This document shows positions 33,630-40,479 of a stretch of DNA of 64,000 nt, piece by piece. The stretch spans positions 928,001-992,000 of the forward strand of contig CBDANF010000002.1 of NCBI GenBank assembly GCA_965197475.1. The letters run 5' to 3'. The notes beneath the pieces were generated by a model. The model worked only from the letters and a program-made list of their open reading frames with translations, was not told where the DNA came from and searched no databases. This DNA comes from Candidatus Poribacteria bacterium (GTDB lineage: Bacteria > Poribacteria > WGA-4E > WGA-3G). Each line of letters opens with the position of its first letter. Position 1 is the first letter of the stretch. Position numbers and translations under genes: made by a program.

Positions 33630-33843
33630 GTAGGTTAGTTCTTTACAAAAAGTTAACCAGCACAAGTCGTTAATATAATAAGACTAGGATTTACGCAGGT
33701 TGCTCTTTTTACGCGCTATTTGGTTTGTAGTAGCGCAAATCCATTGCACGTTCTTGGTGATTTACGATCAATTTCGCCACGGAATCCAAATTTGCGTAAG
33801 TCCTATGGGTATTACTTGTTTCAAGAAAGGAGGACAAGAAACT

Positions 33844-36800
33844 ATGATCAACAAAATGAGAAATTGGACTGCCGTAGCAATGTTGTTCCTGTTCCTGTTG
33901 CCGCTGGCATCAGCCCAACTCACGCCAAACATCTGGAAGAAATTCATCGGCGAACCGGTCCCCGCGGGAACCCCTGATTTAATTGATTATTCTTATGCTG
34001 GCTATAAAAATGGCGTAGAAGGCATCCCCGAAGATTTTGCGTATACAGTGTTTAATGTTACTGATTATGGGGCAAATCCTGATGATGGTATCTCTGATAC
34101 TGCTGGTATTAGAGATGCCCTTGATGCAGCTGCAGTAGGAAACAGTATCGTCTTTTTTCCTCCCGGTCAATATGATGTATTACTTGATGATGATGTAAAA
34201 GATCCATTTATAGTCAGAGGACATCATGTTATTCTTCGTGGAAGTGGTGCTCAAGGTGCTGGCAGAGGTGGAACAACTATAAAGATGCACAATCAGCTTA
34301 CAGATCCTTATCAAAATCAATACCTGTTTATTCCACAAGGAGGTGATGCTGGTTGGGATGGAGCCCCACGCGTTAATGGTTCATTTCCAAGTGGAATAAA
34401 ATACTTTGATGTAAATAAGACAACACCACTTATAGGACGCAAATATATTGCAATAAGGGCATCCAATCTACTTGGAGAGGATTTTGATAAATATTCTTCA
34501 CGACCCTTAAAGAATATTTCTGAATTTTATACAGGAATTCATAAAGGTGTTAGTATTAGAGAATATCATGAGATTGATAGAATCGAAGGTAACCGTGTCT
34601 ATCTAAAAGCCCCACTCGTAACGCATCTAAAACACGGTATGATTGTCGTTTGGACCGATTTATCAGAGGGTATCGGTTTTGAAAATTTGCATATTGATGG
34701 TGGTTATGATGAAATTTATAGGCATTTACACTATTTTGGACGTGGTGGAATTAATTTATCTGGTACTGCACATTCATGGATCCGCCGATGTCGGTTTTCT
34801 AATGTTATTTCGTCATTTAGAGTGACTAACAGTTACGGCACTTCGGCAGTTAGCAATATAGTTGATGGTAGATTTGGACATAATTTAAGTGATTTTGTTG
34901 GTTCAACATATTGCTTGATCGCTTTTTTACATGATTATTCGGATAGAGGTATGTGGCATGGCGCGAATGTCTCGCATTGGTCGGTTGGAAATGTAGTATG
35001 GCATGTTAGGGGTCCATCAGCAAAGGGTCCTGATGTGCACGGTGCGCAGCCGCGCCATACGCTGTTCGATAATTACAGAAGTGTCAATCATCATACCAGC
35101 AGTGGTGGTGGAGGTTCCATGCCTAATCACCTTGATGGATATGTTCGCTGGAATAACACTGCTAATTCGAGTGTGACTCTTGACTTATGGGGACGTAGTG
35201 GAGGACGACGTTTGTTGGTCACGCAAGGTTCCCTGATAGGATACAAGGCGTTGGGTGGTGCCATCCCCCGCGACGCCTACTTTGAGGGATACGGCACGCA
35301 TGTCTCTCCTAATTCACTTTACGAGGCACAACTGGAGCACCGATTAGGGACACTGCCTGCGTGGGTAGATGCTTACAAAAAGATGGACAGAAAATTCTTG
35401 CAAAGCATTGTCATAGATCCAGGACACCCCATCACACCTTCCGATGAAGATGTCAACTTGGATCCATCTCAGGGTGGTCCGAAAATTAGCGGTCCGTGGT
35501 TATGGGTGCTGGTACCAGATGAACATTTTGACGGTACTACAGATCTGCTGGCAAAAGCAAGCGGTGGTAATGTTTCAGAAACGCAAATTGCTACTGACGG
35601 TGTGATAGTCGGAGACAAAGTTGGAGACTATGAATGGACACCTCTCAAAATAGGCAGTGGTGGTAATAACCTCAACGATATGGTGAGTAACCTCGGTTGG
35701 AACGGAAACAATCGTGTCATTTACGGTTTCATCACCTTAAATACACTGAAAGAACAGAACACAAAAATGTTTGTTGGAAGTGATGATTCCGTAAGGGTGT
35801 GGCTCAATGGAGAACTTGTTCACGATAAAATAAAAAGGCGGAGTGCAAGTGATTACAAAGAATCTTTTCCCGTTACCCTGAGGAAAGGAAAGAATTCGTT
35901 ATTAGTAGCTATTGACAATTACACCGGTGGATGGAGCGGTTTTTTTGGCTTTCAAGCAGATGCGGAATATACGGTACAAACTTTTTCTGGCATCGGATAT
36001 GCCATTTTCATTGATGATATCTTTAGCGGTGATACGTTTACTCTTGACATCTACGCAGAAGATGTGCCCGATTTAGTAGAATGGCAGTTTGACATAGCGT
36101 TTGATCCTTTACTGCTTGAAGCAATTGAGGTCCGCAAAGGTTATTTTTTAGAGTCGGAGGGTGGGACAACCTTCTTCCAGAATGGTGCAATTGATAATCA
36201 ATCCGGAAAAATAATAGGTCTTAGTGAAGTGGAACCTAATGGAAACAGTGTCAGTGGTACAGGCTTGCTGCTTACCGTAACCTTTTTAGCCAAAGCGGGT
36301 GGTAAGACACAATTGACACTCAATAACTTTCGATTCGGTGATAGTATTGGGCAATCAATCCCTACCGGACCACATGAAACTACGATTTCGGTGAAAGGAA
36401 AGCTGGCGTGGGATGTCAACGGAGATGGACAAGTAAACATTTTAGATATAGTTCTCGTTGCTCAAGACTTAGGGAAGCCTTCATCCGTTAATTCGCGAAC
36501 GGATGTCAACGGCGACGAGACTGTTAACATCTTAGACCTCGTCCTTGTGGCACAACACATGGGTGAAACAGAAATCGGAGCAGCACCTACTACTATCGCA
36601 ATAGAAGACGTAAAAGGATTAGACCCGGCAACCGTTCAAGCGTGGATAGAGCAGGCACGTGCTGAAGATGATGGATCACTCGCTTTCCAAAAGGGCATTG
36701 CAAATCTTGAAAGGCTTCTGGCATTGTTAATCCCTAAAAAGACAGCGTTGCTGCAGAACTATCCAAATCCGTTTAATCCCGAGACATGGATACCGTATCA

Positions 36801-37029
36801 ACTCTCCGAACCGGCGAAGGTTACCCTGACAATCTACGCTGTGAATGGAACAAAGGTTCGGACGTTAGCATTAGGACTGATGCCTGCAGGTATCTATCAA
36901 AGTCGCAGTCGCGCTGCCTATTGGGATGGAAAAAATGACGTAGGTGAGTCTATTGCGAGCGGTATCTATTTCTACACGCTAACCGTAGGAGGGTTTAAGT
37001 CAACGCGTAAGATGTTGATTCTGAAATAG
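33844..37029 (+). CDS. Secreted modular protein: beta-helix (pectate lyase 3/DUF4955-like), PA14-like, cohesin, dockerin and FlgD/T9SS-like C-terminal domains
   Basis: AGGAGG RBS and signal peptide; FNVTDYGA.PDDG.SDT, FFPPGQY, GSDDSVRVWLNG, WQFDIAFDP, two DVNGD..VNILD, LLQNYPNPFNPETWIP. Confidence 0.85.
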   Translation: MINKMRNWTAVAMLFLFLLPLASAQLTPNIWKKFIGEPVPAGTPDLIDYSYAGYKNGVEGIPEDFAYTVFNVTDYGANPDDGISDTAGIRDALDAAAVGNSIVFFPPGQYDVLLDDDVKDPFIVRGHHVILRGSGAQGAGRGGTTIKMHNQLTDPYQNQYLFIPQGGDAGWDGAPRVNGSFPSGIKYFDVNKTTPLIGRKYIAIRASNLLGEDFDKYSSRPLKNISEFYTGIHKGVSIREYHEIDRIEGNRVYLKAPLVTHLKHGMIVVWTDLSEGIGFENLHIDGGYDEIYRHLHYFGRGGINLSGTAHSWIRRCRFSNVISSFRVTNSYGTSAVSNIVDGRFGHNLSDFVGSTYCLIAFLHDYSDRGMWHGANVSHWSVGNVVWHVRGPSAKGPDVHGAQPRHTLFDNYRSVNHHTSSGGGGSMPNHLDGYVRWNNTANSSVTLDLWGRSGGRRLLVTQGSLIGYKALGGAIPRDAYFEGYGTHVSPNSLYEAQLEHRLGTLPAWVDAYKKMDRKFLQSIVIDPGHPITPSDEDVNLDPSQGGPKISGPWLWVLVPDEHFDGTTDLLAKASGGNVSETQIATDGVIVGDKVGDYEWTPLKIGSGGNNLNDMVSNLGWNGNNRVIYGFITLNTLKEQNTKMFVGSDDSVRVWLNGELVHDKIKRRSASDYKESFPVTLRKGKNSLLVAIDNYTGGWSGFFGFQADAEYTVQTFSGIGYAIFIDDIFSGDTFTLDIYAEDVPDLVEWQFDIAFDPLLLEAIEVRKGYFLESEGGTTFFQNGAIDNQSGKIIGLSEVEPNGNSVSGTGLLLTVTFLAKAGGKTQLTLNNFRFGDSIGQSIPTGPHETTISVKGKLAWDVNGDGQVNILDIVLVAQDLGKPSSVNSRTDVNGDETVNILDLVLVAQHMGETEIGAAPTTIAIEDVKGLDPATVQAWIEQARAEDDGSLAFQKGIANLERLLALLIPKKTALLQNYPNPFNPETWIPYQLSEPAKVTLTIYAVNGTKVRTLALGLMPAGIYQSRSRAAYWDGKNDVGESIASGIYFYTLTVGGFKSTRKMLILK

Positions 37030-37155
37030 TATCAAATGACCATAGGATAGCTGGAAGGCTGATGTTTATTGGCTTCCCAGCGATCGTTGATGAGTGGGTT
37101 GCGTTGGGATCGCGAGCATCCTCTTTGAGAAATGATGCGTTTAGCGATAAACGTG
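37030..37155 (-). ncRNA. Candidate structured small RNA in the 3' end of the element
   Basis: Lies downstream of a consensus promoter; four consecutive stems (CGTTTA/TAAACG, GCATC/GATGC, GCGATC/GATCGC, GCTGG/CCAGC). Confidence 0.4.
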
Positions 37156-37160
37156 TCTAA

Positions 37161-37189
37161 AGTATAGCAAAACCAGTAGCGGTTGTCAA
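37161..37189 (-). promoter_or_regulatory. Near-consensus extended sigma70 promoter pointing towards the element end
   Basis: TTGACA-ACCGCTACTGGTTTTGC(17)-TATACT with TG extension. Confidence 0.75.
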
Positions 37190-37256
37190 CCATATTTTCA
37201 AGGCACCTGCCCCGGTTTTGCGAAGTAAAGTTCGTCGGGAACATAGGATTAGGGTC

Positions 37257-38141
37257 TCATTGGGCTTCTCCTTGGTGAGTGGCTTCATCGTTTGAGTCTG
37301 AATTGGCAAGGTCTGCATCTATGGCTTGGAGTTGGTGCTGCGGTATGAGGTCGAGATATTGAGAGATCACACGTTTAGAAAGTCGTGTAATCTGTGAGAT
37401 TTTATCAATATCTGCGGTTGCTTTCCGAACGACTTTGACGCTCTCATAATCGCGAATGTATCGGTCAACTGCCTCCTTAGAGTGTTTGGTCTTTGCGGCA
37501 ATCCTGGGGGTGAGATGTCCTTGAAGATAGAGGGTTATGATCTCTTTCTTATGGGTAATAGCCCCCGATAAGTCATGGATATTGCCACGGGTGGGCAAGA
37601 GTTCTCCAGTGGTTTTTTGCCATTCATTAACATAATCACAGACAACGGCATCGCAGACATTGAGCAAAACTGCCAAGTCGAGTTGTGTCAATAATGCCCC
37701 TTGGTCATAAGCTTGATGACACCAGCGGACCAAGCGATTGATCCGCAATTGCCGGGAGGTGAAACCGTTGCGAAAGGATTCAATATCCTCTGCGGCGAGG
37801 TAAGTCAGGATGACGGGTTTCATGCGGGTTTTGACGATGGACTTTCCTCTTTCTGGATGCTCTTCAATAGGGACGGCCATCCAAACGAGTTGTCCATAAC
37901 TCAAGAAACGCTCATCCGGGAGTTGATCGCCGGTGGCGAGTTTCTCCAAAGGAAGGGTAATCACGAAATAGTCTTCAACGGTCTTAAGAATATCATCAAC
38001 AATGGCGGTGGCAGTGACTTCGCCTTTGTCATAACCATAGTCATTGAGAAAGCGGTGAATGAGCAACTGTCGTAGGGACTTATCGTTGATGCGTCTGAAT
38101 TTCTTCTCGTTGATTTGCGTGCGGGTTAGAGGTTTGCTCAT
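37257..38141 (-). CDS. DUF1670-like protein, paralog B
   Basis: AYDQGALLTQLDLAVLL, PTRGNIHD..AITHK, KHSKEAVDRY; ATGA overlap with paralog A. Confidence 0.8.
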   Translation of the reverse strand: MSKPLTRTQINEKKFRRINDKSLRQLLIHRFLNDYGYDKGEVTATAIVDDILKTVEDYFVITLPLEKLATGDQLPDERFLSYGQLVWMAVPIEEHPERGKSIVKTRMKPVILTYLAAEDIESFRNGFTSRQLRINRLVRWCHQAYDQGALLTQLDLAVLLNVCDAVVCDYVNEWQKTTGELLPTRGNIHDLSGAITHKKEIITLYLQGHLTPRIAAKTKHSKEAVDRYIRDYESVKVVRKATADIDKISQITRLSKRVISQYLDLIPQHQLQAIDADLANSDSNDEATHQGEAQ

Positions 38142-38938
38142 GAGAGGTCCCCCTTTTTTGTGTCCTCAGGTTCTGGGTGAAGGAGTTGGGTTATGCGATC
38201 TGTGTGTTGGTATTCCTCATAGAGTGAGAGATACTCGCGGATCAACCGGTCAGATAGATGGGTGATCAGGCGTATCTGTGCGTTAGGAAAGCCTTGATGA
38301 TGGAGCGTAGCGACTTGTGTAAAGTCTTTCAAGTAGCGGTAGACAGCTCGTTCGCTGTGGTTCGTCTTTTTCTCGATTTCGGTGAAGGTATAGGCTTTGA
38401 AATATAACTCCAGGACCTGGGTTTTATGAGAAGTGCCGGGGCCCATGTCGTGTTTCGTCCCGCGCGTCATAACGAAATACCCATCCTGCTTCAAGTGTCG
38501 AATGTCGCGTTTGACTGTAGCAGGACTGGTGGTTAATAATACAGCTAAATCCTCGTAGCTCAGTAAGGCATCTTGGTCATAAGCTTCTTGGGTCAATCGG
38601 AGGATCCGATGCCGTCTGAGTCCTGCGAGACCATAATTCGCTAAGACTTCAAGATCGGCGTTTGTGTCATTGAGAGTTAGCCGACAGGAAACTTTTTTCG
38701 CTAAAGCGATATGTTTACCTGCGGGTTCCTCTGCGGCGACTGCCTCGTAGCAGATTTGCCCTGATGTCAGGTGCACATCGGCGTGTTGTTCAAAGTAGGT
38801 GGAAATCTGTTTATAGTAGGCTTCAGCAACGAGAGGCATTAGATTAAAGTCTGCTGAAATCTTCTGAATAATCGCGGCTCTGGCATTCTTGGATTCGAGC
38901 CGAGTGATACCGTAAGCGGTATCCTTCTTGCGGTTCAT
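38138..38938 (-). CDS. DUF1670-like protein, paralog A
   Basis: EAYDQDALLSYEDLAVLL, TRGTKHDMGPGTSHK, NHSERAVYRY; GGAGG RBS 5 nt before the ATG at 38938. Confidence 0.8.
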   Translation of the reverse strand: MNRKKDTAYGITRLESKNARAAIIQKISADFNLMPLVAEAYYKQISTYFEQHADVHLTSGQICYEAVAAEEPAGKHIALAKKVSCRLTLNDTNADLEVLANYGLAGLRRHRILRLTQEAYDQDALLSYEDLAVLLTTSPATVKRDIRHLKQDGYFVMTRGTKHDMGPGTSHKTQVLELYFKAYTFTEIEKKTNHSERAVYRYLKDFTQVATLHHQGFPNAQIRLITHLSDRLIREYLSLYEEYQHTDRITQLLHPEPEDTKKGDLS

Positions 38939-39068
38939 ATTGACCTCCATGAATAGATTATCGGGGATCCGAGGACATCTACTCGTTAGTTTAACGAATA
39001 CTAATAGTATAACTCATGGGGTCATTTGATATAAACTATAAATAGCTCGCGGCTATTTCTTTCTGTCC

Positions 39069-39116
39069 GAGGGAACTCCGAATCGCGACCAGTCGGGAAT
39101 CGGAGTTCCCTCCTAC
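39069..39116. repeat. GTAG-type REP doublet; related hairpins at 41947-41970, 45620-45642 and 60610-60651
   Basis: GAGGGAACTCCG...CGGAGTTCCCTCCTAC; GTAGGAGCGACCTCC...GGAGGTCGCTCCTAC. Confidence 0.7.
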
Positions 39117-39141
39117 AACTTCTAAAAAGGAGAACTAATAC

Positions 39142-40479
39142 ATGAAAACGATACTATTTCTCATACTTTTACTATTAGCTTTTGTAACACTTACGTTTGT
39201 GCCGAATAGTTTTGCACAAGACGCTGCAGATGAAGTTATCTCAATACCGGACCCAACTTTAAAAGCGAGACTCTGTAAAGTATTTAATAAGCCATCTAAT
39301 TGCATAATCACAAAACAGGATATGGAAGGGTTAACGGAACTTGACATCATTGTCCTTAACCCCAGTGATGTCAGAGACAAAAACATTATAGGGCTTGAAT
39401 ACGCAATTAATTTAACAAAGTTTGAAATCCATCGCACGTATGTTAGCGATATAATGCCACTCTCAGGGTTAACAAAATTAACATGGTTACAGATGGCTGC
39501 TAATAAAATCATGGACATCAAACCCTTGGCAGAATTGACAAATCTGGAATTTTTACACTTGTCGACCAATAAAATTAGTGATGTCACACCCCTATCAGGG
39601 CTAACAAAATTAACAGGATTATTGCTTAGCAATAATCAAATCACGGACATCAGTCCGCTTGCCGAGTTGACAAATCTGAAGAATTTATGGCTTGATGGTA
39701 ATCAAATCATAGACATCAGTCCGCTTACTGCTTTGACAAATTTGACGCTTTTAGGTCTTAATGGTAATCAAATCATAGACATCAGTCCGCTTACTGCTTT
39801 GACAAATTTGACGCTTTTAGGTCTTAATGGTAATCAAATCACAGACACGGACCTTAACCTCCTCACTGTGTTTACAAATCTGACAAATTTAAGACTTAAT
39901 GATAATCAAATCACGGACATCAGTCCGCTTGCCGAGTTGACAAATCTGAAGTGGTTAAGTCTTCATGGCAACCAAATTAGCGATGTGAGCCCTCTTACAG
40001 AACTCACAAATCTCAAAACATTAAGAATTTACGACAATCCGATTAAGAACCGAAAACCGCTCCTCGCGCTATTGCAACAGAATCCGGGTATAAAAATTTA
40101 TCTTAAAAACAGTAGGGAAGCACTGCCAGTTACCCTATCCCATTTCAGTGCCGAACACACCGATGCAGGCATTATCCTCAAATGGACAACGGAGTCAGAG
40201 GTAGATAACGCGGGTTTTTATATCTACCGCAGCAAAACAAAGGACGGTGAATTCAAGGTTGTCAACACCGAACTCATTCAAGGTGCTGGCACTACAGGTG
40301 AACGCAATGAATACACGTGGACAGATACCACCGCTAAACCGCATACCTTCTACTATTATCGGATAGAAGATGTGTCGTATGCTGGAGAACAGGAGCAGTT
40401 GGCAACCGTTCGGTTGAGAGGGTTTGTATCCGCAAGCGGTAAACGGACTACAAGTTGGGCAGATTTGAAATCCCAGTAG
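39142..40479 (+). CDS. Secreted internalin-like leucine-rich repeat protein
   Basis: Signal peptide; IPD..L cap; about ten 22-aa L..N.I.DISPL..LTNL repeats; C-terminal LPVTLSHF...W.TESE.DN.GF...W..LK domain. Confidence 0.92.
   Translation: MKTILFLILLLLAFVTLTFVPNSFAQDAADEVISIPDPTLKARLCKVFNKPSNCIITKQDMEGLTELDIIVLNPSDVRDKNIIGLEYAINLTKFEIHRTYVSDIMPLSGLTKLTWLQMAANKIMDIKPLAELTNLEFLHLSTNKISDVTPLSGLTKLTGLLLSNNQITDISPLAELTNLKNLWLDGNQIIDISPLTALTNLTLLGLNGNQIIDISPLTALTNLTLLGLNGNQITDTDLNLLTVFTNLTNLRLNDNQITDISPLAELTNLKWLSLHGNQISDVSPLTELTNLKTLRIYDNPIKNRKPLLALLQQNPGIKIYLKNSREALPVTLSHFSAEHTDAGIILKWTTESEVDNAGFYIYRSKTKDGEFKVVNTELIQGAGTTGERNEYTWTDTTAKPHTFYYYRIEDVSYAGEQEQLATVRLRGFVSASGKRTTSWADLKSQ
39695..39841 (+). 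repeat. Perfect 66-bp tandem repeat (about 2.2 copies) inside the LRR gene
   Basis: Identical units start at 39695, 39761 and 39827. Confidence 0.9.

Follow-up and report, generated by a model that had tools for sequence, protein, structure and literature searches.

An outward promoter and a candidate non-coding RNA at the end of a DUF1670 mobile element in Poribacteria

Does a mobile element whose proteins have no recognisable catalytic domain also make an RNA, and what could such an RNA contribute to its movement? The question is raised by positions 37030-37189 of a 64,000-nt stretch of DNA from a Candidatus Poribacteria bacterium (the whole analysed stretch is hereafter called the window, and all coordinates refer to it). 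An initial annotation had described this interval as a dedicated strong promoter followed by a multi-hairpin small RNA candidate inside the end of a mobile element. Its location was borne out and could be sharpened, the interval beginning 4 nt inside an element end whose terminus lies at 37026:

37026..39039, - strand: mobile element, 2,014 bp, with 20 copies in its own genome and relatives in other Poribacteria

This element, from sponge bacteria, is previously undescribed and encodes two proteins of the DUF1670 family (Pfam PF07900) on the - strand. Our answer to the question above is tentative and held at slightly less than an even chance: autonomous copies of the element would make a non-coding transcript that has a regulatory or cofactor role in their own transposition. 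The evidence that carries this answer is the conservation of a promoter pointing out of the element and the pairing of stems downstream of it.

The outward promoter

The promoter, here called P_out, consists of two conserved parts:

37184..37189, - strand: -35 hexamer TTGACA of P_out (promoter scan and conservation)
37161..37169, - strand: TG extension and -10 hexamer (TGCTATACT) of P_out (promoter scan and conservation)

P_out lies 3' of both DUF1670 genes, on the same strand, and is directed at the element terminus. Its layout on the - strand is TTGACA (37189-37184), a 17-nt spacer and TATACT (37166-37161), with TG at 37169-37168, and in sequence it agrees with a sigma-70 extended -10 promoter (-35 TTGACA, 17 +/- 1 nt, TG at -15/-14, -10 near TATAAT). 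The transcript start is predicted at about 37158-37154 (- strand). With 11 of 12 hexamer matches plus TG, P_out ranks first among the six promoter-like sites found when positions 36000-40000 were scanned. However, shuffled versions of the same region yielded 6.9 +/- 2.6 promoter-like sites, and since this is as many as in the real sequence, the P_out motif by itself is not beyond chance.

Conservation was therefore counted over 49 distinct versions of the element end. The -35 hexamer is TTGACA in 35 of them, and the other 14 carry TTGGCA (6), TTGATA (5), TTGAGA (1) or TTGACC (1), each with one mismatch, or TTGGTA (1) with two. The -10 hexamer is TATACT in 46 of the 49 ends, the TG extension is present in 47, and the spacer is 17 or 18 nt long in 48, its sequence occurring in 32 different forms. 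As a neutral yardstick we used the four-fold degenerate sites of both DUF1670 genes in 52 distinct elements with both genes intact, at which the mean pairwise identity is 0.58. The corresponding values are 0.90 for the -35 hexamer and 0.94 for TG plus -10, compared with 0.66 for the spacer and 0.67 for the 67 nt upstream of P_out. The hexamers, the TG and the spacing are thus kept while the spacer drifts, indicating that P_out is more than a chance motif; judged by these sequence comparisons it is under purifying selection. The TTGACA-N17-TATACT promoter with TG that the initial annotation had placed on the - strand was accordingly confirmed both by its matches and by its retention across the 49 versions.

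Folding, strand and the proposed transcript

The second DUF1670 gene stops at 37257, and from there to the terminus at 37026 there are ~230 nt of non-coding sequence. A 70-aa open reading frame (ORF) overlaps the region (37244-37032, - strand); it matches nothing in Pfam, and in relatives the frame that leads to its stop is open for as few as 16 and as many as 119 codons. A small protein was rejected because this frame is not conserved, and the earlier statement that the stretch holds no credible ORF is in substance correct. A search against Rfam gave 0 matches at E <= 10 within 36000-40000, and 0 matches at gathering score in the loci of five divergent relatives. The 135 nt from the -10 hexamer to the terminus fold on the - strand with -27.8 kcal/mol (z -1.98; 9 of 200 shuffles fold as well) and on the + strand with -39.2 kcal/mol (z -1.94; 10 of 200).

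The same stretch, -10 to terminus, was aligned in 40 distinct versions, of which 29 are 'long' (~137 nt) and 11 are 'short' (~104 nt). In the short family 33 nt are missing, among them one hairpin and 10 nt at the start of a C/A-rich stretch. From its 5' to its 3' end, the predicted transcript would contain the following parts:

37102..37153, - strand: 5' hairpin domain of the predicted transcript (folds; 72-96% pairing among homologues)
37090..37108, - strand: conserved C/A-rich stretch (CCAACGCAACCCACTCAT), unpaired in most predicted folds (identity 0.82)
37080..37089, - strand: variable patch (CAACGATCGC), 10 nt (identity 0.55, the neutral level)
37050..37081, - strand: terminal hairpin GCTGGGAAGC / GCCTTCCAGC with the conserved loop AATAAACATCA (88-89% of cells paired)
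37026..37049, no strand assigned: subterminal sequence and terminal inverted repeat (on the + strand ATAG TATCAAATGACC ...), with a sharp boundary in 19 aligned copies

The 5' domain can be drawn either as one long imperfect hairpin or as two small ones, CGTTTA/TAAACG and GCATC..TTCT/AGAG..GATGC. When nine representatives were folded, this domain appeared in the long family, and in the short family it has shrunk to a single 6-bp hairpin. The C/A-rich stretch is retained in shortened derivatives of the element; members of the short family lack its initial 10 nt (CCAACGCAAC) and have the remainder. The variable patch occurs in 29 variants among the element copies compared. The terminal hairpin, with a loop identity of 0.83, is present in all families and also in the shortened derivatives. 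Towards the terminus, conservation is highest: the terminal inverted repeat has an identity of 0.98, and the terminal 50 nt are nearly invariant.

The initial annotation had folded the stretch into four stems, one of them closing a 22-nt C/A-rich loop. Over the alignment these four stems have 80.1% of their cells paired, compared with a mean of 78.2% in shuffles (1 of 500 reaches the observed value) and 36-44% in slid controls, and their covariation score is 0.142 compared with 0.120 in shuffles (again 1 of 500) and 0.03-0.06 in slid controls. The minimum-energy structure, when placed on the alignment, has 85.4% of cells paired and a score of 0.093 versus 0.076 in shuffles (0 of 500). With regard to the individual helices, CGTTTA/TAAACG is 83% paired, with both-sided changes in three of its six pairs. 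The arms of this hairpin have a sequence identity of only 0.58-0.61, the neutral level, and their continued pairing is the clearest indication that a single-stranded fold is under selection. The helix CATC/GATG is 90% paired and TTCT/AGAG 96%, the latter varying through G.U alone, and the sole compensatory pair of the terminal hairpin is the top one (C-G 26, U-G 7, U-A 6). In contrast, the stem GCGATC/GATCGC (37113-37108 with 37085-37080), which closes the 22-nt loop, has 54% of cells paired and is absent from the window's own minimum-energy fold. The four-stem fold thus stands in part: judged by the alignment, three of the stems are conserved (83-96% of cells among the 40 homologues), and the one around the C/A-rich loop is not supported.

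The wobble pairs bear on the strand, because G.U pairs are possible on the - strand only and A.C cells correspond to a wobble on the + strand only. G.U exceeds A.C in the first hairpin (21 vs 8), in TTCT/AGAG (19 vs 0) and in the terminal hairpin (36 vs 16), which gives 76 vs 24 for these three helices and 80 vs 42 when all four helices are counted. The mean fold z of the 40 sequences is -2.34 for sense and -1.99 for antisense (long family -1.87 and -1.14, short family -3.60 and -4.22). It should be underlined that the wobble counts are not independent, the sequences being related. The strand evidence is mixed, and as far as the alignment can tell it mildly favours the strand of the promoter.

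Shortened derivatives of the element lack the promoter. Four short bounded derivatives were found among 20 end-region places, with lengths of 169 (L122), 524 (L115), 537 (L116) and 672 bp (L131), and a fifth, of 444 bp, is present in the window's own genome (C3:93847-94561). An intact P_out is missing in all five. The 169-, 524- and 537-bp derivatives keep only the ~105 last bp of this end, and the other two keep more. Since the 524- and 537-bp copies share their internal structure and have different host genes, they moved after the deletion, without P_out in cis. That derivatives keep the last ~105 bp points to this stretch as cis-acting DNA, and P_out and the 5' hairpin domain are, by the same sequence comparison, features of autonomous copies.

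With P_out selected and stems paired despite drift, an element-encoded RNA is plausible, as the initial annotation had suggested when it named a guide, scaffold or regulator; of these roles, that of guide is unsupported (see below). We infer the existence of this RNA, its end, its binding by protein and its function from the following picture. The strong extended -10 sigma-70 promoter at the gene-distal end would fire towards the terminus, and a non-coding transcript would be made by autonomous copies only. This transcript would begin with a stabilising 5' hairpin domain, followed by a conserved C-rich and G-poor unpaired stretch, a neutral linker and a second hairpin, and its last part would be an RNA copy of the terminal ~105 bp that, as DNA, form the cis-acting end. 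Its function may be control of, or help to, the element's own transposition. In one form of the proposal, the RNA would be bound by the two winged-helix proteins that also read the end as DNA, and would serve as decoy, scaffold or dosage signal; in the other form, transcription across the end would act against read-through from the host gene. The RNA proposed here is not a programmable target guide.

A number of observations weigh against this proposal. A sequence scan found no terminator-like site between P_out and the element end, so a discrete small RNA is not established, and P_out could simply read outward from the element. The short family does without 33 nt that include one hairpin, which makes that part of the RNA dispensable. 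Moreover, the 3' two-thirds of the putative RNA are kept in promoterless derivatives, so their conservation may be at the DNA level only. For the four stems, the 8 pairs changed on both sides are reached by 121 of 500 shuffles and the 24 further pair types by 459; for the minimum-energy structure the corresponding numbers are 331 and 436 of 500. According to the notes of the pairing tool, related sequences may exceed shuffles even without structure, and the covariation signal is therefore weak to moderate. RNAalifold found almost no consensus structure for all 40 sequences (-0.08 kcal/mol) or for the long family (-0.3 sense, -1.4 antisense), and two or three hairpins for the short family, with -30.1 on the + strand vs -16.1. 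Two divergent representatives show no advantage over shuffles in their folding (z +0.20 and +0.83). With regard to the strand, the GCATC/GATGC helix has 18 A.C vs 4 G.U and favours the + strand; the initial annotation had cautioned that two stems gain G-U pairs there, which applies to this one, the three other helices preferring the - strand. Finally, part of the stretch is contained in 20 sequencing runs from 8 studies, 14 of them recorded as RNA, and element sequence occurs in assembled contigs of four metatranscriptome runs from four studies, a finding that gives presence only, not strand, ends or level. The contigs break at 37025, 37160/37162 and 37189; the first and the last coincide with branch points of the assembly graph, and the breaks look like assembly branch points, not RNA ends. 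No joint connecting the two element ends was listed for these contigs.

The element, its target and rival explanations

The element as a whole bears on what its end may do, and the features that matter here are:

37024..37025, no strand assigned: AA from the final Lys codon of the host gene, with a repeat at 39040-41 (2-bp duplication or crossover core)
33700..37029, + strand: host gene, 1,109 aa, with dockerin, cohesin and a sorting-domain-like C-terminal end; the element restores its last codon and stop
38138..38950, - strand: first DUF1670 gene, 270 aa (Pfam PF07900, E 4e-62), with a 4-nt overlap with the second
37257..38141, - strand: second DUF1670 gene, 294 aa (Pfam PF07900, E 1.2e-61)
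39006..39035, - strand: candidate promoter of both genes, overlapping the other inverted repeat (TTTATA-18-TATACT, 9/12)

Alignment of 19 copies with their flanks gave razor-sharp element boundaries. On the + strand the element starts with ATAG TATCAAATGACC at 37026 and ends with GGTCATTTGATA(C/T)AAACTAT at 39039, the inverted-repeat partner of the 37026 end being at 39020-39039. The window's own genome holds 20 end pairs, of which 18 are ~2 kb apart, one has a deletion and one spans 444 bp, and all 20 occurrences of the region under study in this genome are within element copies. In the window, AA followed by the element's ATAG reads AAA TAG, that is, the Lys codon and stop of the 1,109-aa gene; at the far junction, AA is followed by the variable rest of the original codon and stop (R TRR). 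In Pfam, the host gene product matches FlgD_ig above the cut-off with its C-terminal domain, and its matches to Por_Secre_tail and CHU_C stay below it; because of these matches we term such gene ends sorting-domain-like (C-terminal-domain-like, CTD-like).

A single orientation is used, and the insertion point is the AA of the final Lys codon. Of the 19 aligned copies, 17 are at the ends of genes whose products end ...TRKM[LV]IxK, and 43 such gene ends, 18 of which are occupied, were picked out in the genome by an ad hoc pattern. The element has a safe insertion point in a whole gene family, of which it fills 18 of 43 candidate sites and rebuilds the codon and stop that it interrupts. When all full-length copies compared were considered, 80 distinct insertion sites were obtained: 69 are sorting-domain-like gene ends, 6 or 7 lie in an unrelated palindromic repeat, and a TT/AA dinucleotide abuts the junction at all 80. 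One subfamily (L067-L070, L080 and L083) is inserted in the middle of this palindromic repeat (...AAACCGAGTTTT TT / element / ...AAAACTCGGTTT), and L054, which is closely related and shares the end sequence, is located at a gene end. The shortened derivatives have both ends and no genes and are likewise at sorting-domain-like gene ends, one derivative family having at least 5 copies in one genome.

Relatives with 74-97% protein identity were found at 69 loci of genomes titled Candidatus Poribacteria. The end region is present in 63 of 121 Poribacteria genomes, compared with 35 of 121 that have PF07900 genes. Three genomes (G029, G070 and G076; loci L128-L130) have ends with intact P_out and no DUF1670 gene at E <= 1e-10; these ends may be decayed copies. 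Just outside the element, at 39069-39112, there is a 44-nt palindrome with a perfect stem (GGGAACTCCGAATC...GATTCGGAGTTCCC type; -34 kcal/mol within a 71-nt piece), relatives of which occur at ~27 places of the genome and reach very high depth in RNA-library contigs. The palindrome was probably the host gene's original downstream hairpin and is now 2 kb further away. Further out, two identical terminator-like hairpins (GCGGACTGATGTCCGT) at 39643-39658 and 39913-39928 on the - strand, 270 nt apart, lie inside a + strand leucine-rich-repeat gene and probably reflect its repeat units.

As for the two proteins, a Pfam scan returned DUF1670 and helix-turn-helix families only, with no DEDD, TnpB or IscB domain in either, and NCBIfam gave nothing above its cut-off. 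The AlphaFold model of the first protein (mean pLDDT 89.7) consists of helices and winged-helix modules, and Foldseek found 0 matches to it in the PDB at E <= 0.001. No DDE, transposase or integrase domain was detected by Pfam, NCBIfam, PDB sequence search or Foldseek. A catalytic domain in DUF1670 was sought by all of these routes and in the ESM Atlas, and only likeness to helix-turn-helix or winged-helix proteins emerged. The family counts 1,254 representatives at E <= 0.001, including fused two- and three-unit forms, and no other domain was seen in the eight fused or extended forms scanned. The distribution of PF07900 is patchy: of 121 genomes searched within the phylum 35 contain it, and Methanosarcina acetivorans is the one positive among 14 control genomes. 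Full-text literature searches for 'DUF1670' and 'PF07900' found no paper, and the element gives this family its first functional context. Since known domains do not explain how the element moves, an RNA partner deserves attention.

Of the rival explanations, the one that survives best is that P_out is a junction or tandem promoter, which would drive the DUF1670 genes when two ends abut in a circle or a tandem dimer, the ~135 nt then being only the start of a long leader. We regard this as unlikely, though worth serious thought. P_out is strong and complete and points at the terminus with no terminator-like site before the end, it is kept in autonomous copies and lost in derivatives that express nothing, and the 2-bp AA at both junctions fits circle integration; moreover, IS1111 and IS110 elements use a promoter that is active in the circular form, as described in PMC11187229. 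However, the genes have a promoter-like site of their own at the other end, whose -10 is kept as TAnACT in relatives, and in a circle the two inverted repeats would be expected to form a long RNA hairpin between P_out and the genes. Abutted ends are absent from the window's own genome and from all 176 Poribacteria genomes searched (0/176), chromosomes not being expected to hold them, and none was seen in metagenome contigs, a collection that holds the end in only 1 contig. A junction promoter also leaves unexplained that the stems pair while their sequence drifts.

Alternatively, the end could act at the DNA level only, its palindromes being protein-binding sites or single-stranded-DNA structures and P_out being incidental or a barrier to read-through. 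The retention of the last ~105 bp in promoterless derivatives and the near invariance of the terminal 50 nt would fit such a role, as would the facts that both strands of the window fold about equally well, with the + strand better in the short family, that one helix prefers the + strand, and that RNAalifold sees no consensus in the long family. In addition, the host gene, on the + strand, runs into this end and has its native palindrome now 2 kb away. On the other hand, an incidental promoter would not keep its hexamers, TG and spacing over 49 variants while its spacer drifts, the excess of G.U over A.C (80 to 42) fits a - strand RNA and not duplex DNA, and the hairpin richest in compensatory change belongs to the portion missing from derivatives. 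A purely DNA-level role is for these reasons decidedly unlikely.

It would be a bolder step to propose that the DUF1670 pair and the end RNA form a new transposition machinery in which the RNA is an obligatory cofactor for recognition of the donor end or for catalysis. We consider this a long shot. If true, such an RNA-cofactor machinery would define a new insertion-sequence family that homes to the last codon of sorting-domain genes.

The last alternative is a programmable guide RNA of the bridge or seekRNA kind, whose loops would pair with the target and the donor ends and set the insertion site. The order of genes, non-coding stretch and end matches that of IS1111 as described in PMC11187229, insertion is highly site-specific, in one orientation and with a 2-nt repeat only, and proteins with no recognisable catalytic domain leave room for an RNA partner. 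The variable patch was rejected as a target guide, because all 29 variants are at the same kind of target and its identity of 0.55 shows drift at the neutral rate; the two patch variants of the window's own genome are, by eye, at similarly mixed targets. The terminal-hairpin loop (AAT NNN CAT) looks like the target's invariant Ile and Met codon bases as they appear on the opposite strand. In a target weight matrix built from 81 sites it ranks second of ~4,000 element positions, but with a score of 4.1 bits compared with a median of 25.8 for true sites. Since this score is weak and the loop does not follow the target, it was rejected as target mimic or guide, and the resemblance is unexplained. 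The covariation of loop sequences with insertion-site flanks that the initial annotation had envisaged was not found: the target is common to all variants, and copies with a single loop type occur at two target classes.

A partner of the patch within the element was also rejected, as exact complementary words of 7-12 nt do not recur at a common position in the variants; a 10-mer that equals codons of the second gene is confined to some subfamilies. When the putative RNA was scanned for duplexes with the element mRNA, the best shared site was at about positions 1290-1310 of the element (codons RLVRWCHQ of the second gene), with a mean of -22.9 compared with -15.4 +/- 2.3 kcal/mol over 180 bins. 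In most long-family members the linker after the 5' hairpin domain (GATGC.AGCGA..CCAAC, 37102-37125) is partly complementary to 37830-37870, which covers the same RLVRWCHQ codons. Because the copies are related, a chance match can be inherited and the short family lacks this part of the RNA, the duplex was judged not significant, and the linker complementarity was likewise judged not significant, although it may represent an antisense contact.

A programmable guide is hardly probable at all, given that one kind of gene end accounts for 69 of the 80 distinct sites irrespective of the RNA variant, that the patch drifts neutrally, that a single loop type occurs at sorting-domain gene ends as well as in an unrelated palindromic repeat, that the loop match falls far below true sites, that DEDD, TnpB and IscB domains and Rfam matches are absent from the searches above, and that promoterless derivatives moved, though these may have been supplied with RNA in trans.

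Comparison with known systems

The element can be compared with known systems in its choice of target as well as in its candidate RNA. Tn7 inserts downstream of glmS through TnsD, and some integrative elements rebuild the ends of tRNA genes. The present element resembles these in using a conserved 3' coding end as landmark and in leaving the gene product intact; unlike them, it targets a paralogous gene family (43 candidate ends, 18 occupied), and no transposase or integrase domain is detectable. With IS630 and Tc1-mariner-like elements it shares inverted repeats and a 2-bp AA, whereas the DDE transposase domain of these elements was not found here.

Small RNAs from element ends and from 3' untranslated regions (UTRs) provide further parallels. 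RNA-OUT of IS10 is made from a strong outward promoter near the element end, and is a stable stem-loop RNA that regulates the element as antisense to the 5' end of the transposase mRNA. Unlike in RNA-OUT, P_out is at the far end and on the genes' own strand, so that the predicted RNA would be sense to their 3' UTR. DapZ and MicL are 3'-UTR-derived small RNAs with their own internal promoter; here, too, a promoter after the coding region and on the same strand would give a short RNA sharing the 3' part of the mRNA. Those RNAs are, however, chromosomal regulators with defined terminators and seed regions, and no terminator-like site was found in the interval studied here. The omega RNA of IS200/IS605 TnpB elements originates from the 3' end of the element and overlaps its terminus; unlike in those systems, there is no TnpB or IscB gene and no Rfam match here.

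In layout, the element resembles the IS1111/IS110 elements with seekRNA or bridge RNA. According to PMC11187229, elements of the IS1111 type depend on a 3' non-coding region, which may be supplied in cis or in trans; they form circles carrying a junction promoter, and their insertion causes no duplication. The element described here shares with the IS1111/IS110 elements of that account a non-coding stretch between the last gene and the end with a promoter that would transcribe it, and an insertion that is specific for site and orientation, takes place in repeated sequences of the chromosome and makes no long target duplication. It differs in having two DUF1670 winged-helix proteins and not a DEDD (RuvC-like) transposase, in a P_out that is complete and internal and not assembled at a circle junction in the manner described there (PMC11187229), and in that no segment covaries with the target and no Rfam match was obtained. 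By this analogy, the likeness to IS1111 is one of layout only. In ISPpu9, a member of the IS110 family, the small RNA gene Ssr9 lies 3' of the transposase and repeated palindromes are targeted, as reported in PMC12288879. Here, similarly, the candidate RNA is 3' of the transposition gene and one subfamily occupies a palindromic repeat, whereas ISPpu9 is reported there to have solo copies of the RNA gene (PMC12288879) and the region studied here occurs within element copies in 20 of 20 cases.

Insertion sequences with an RNA-encoding non-coding end have recently yielded programmable recombination systems. The setting is unusual even if the RNA is merely a regulator or a leader, and the wider element is more remarkable than the RNA: it combines proteins of unknown function, with no recognisable catalytic domain, with homing to a last codon. 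The same layout together with such proteins makes the element worth a bench test.

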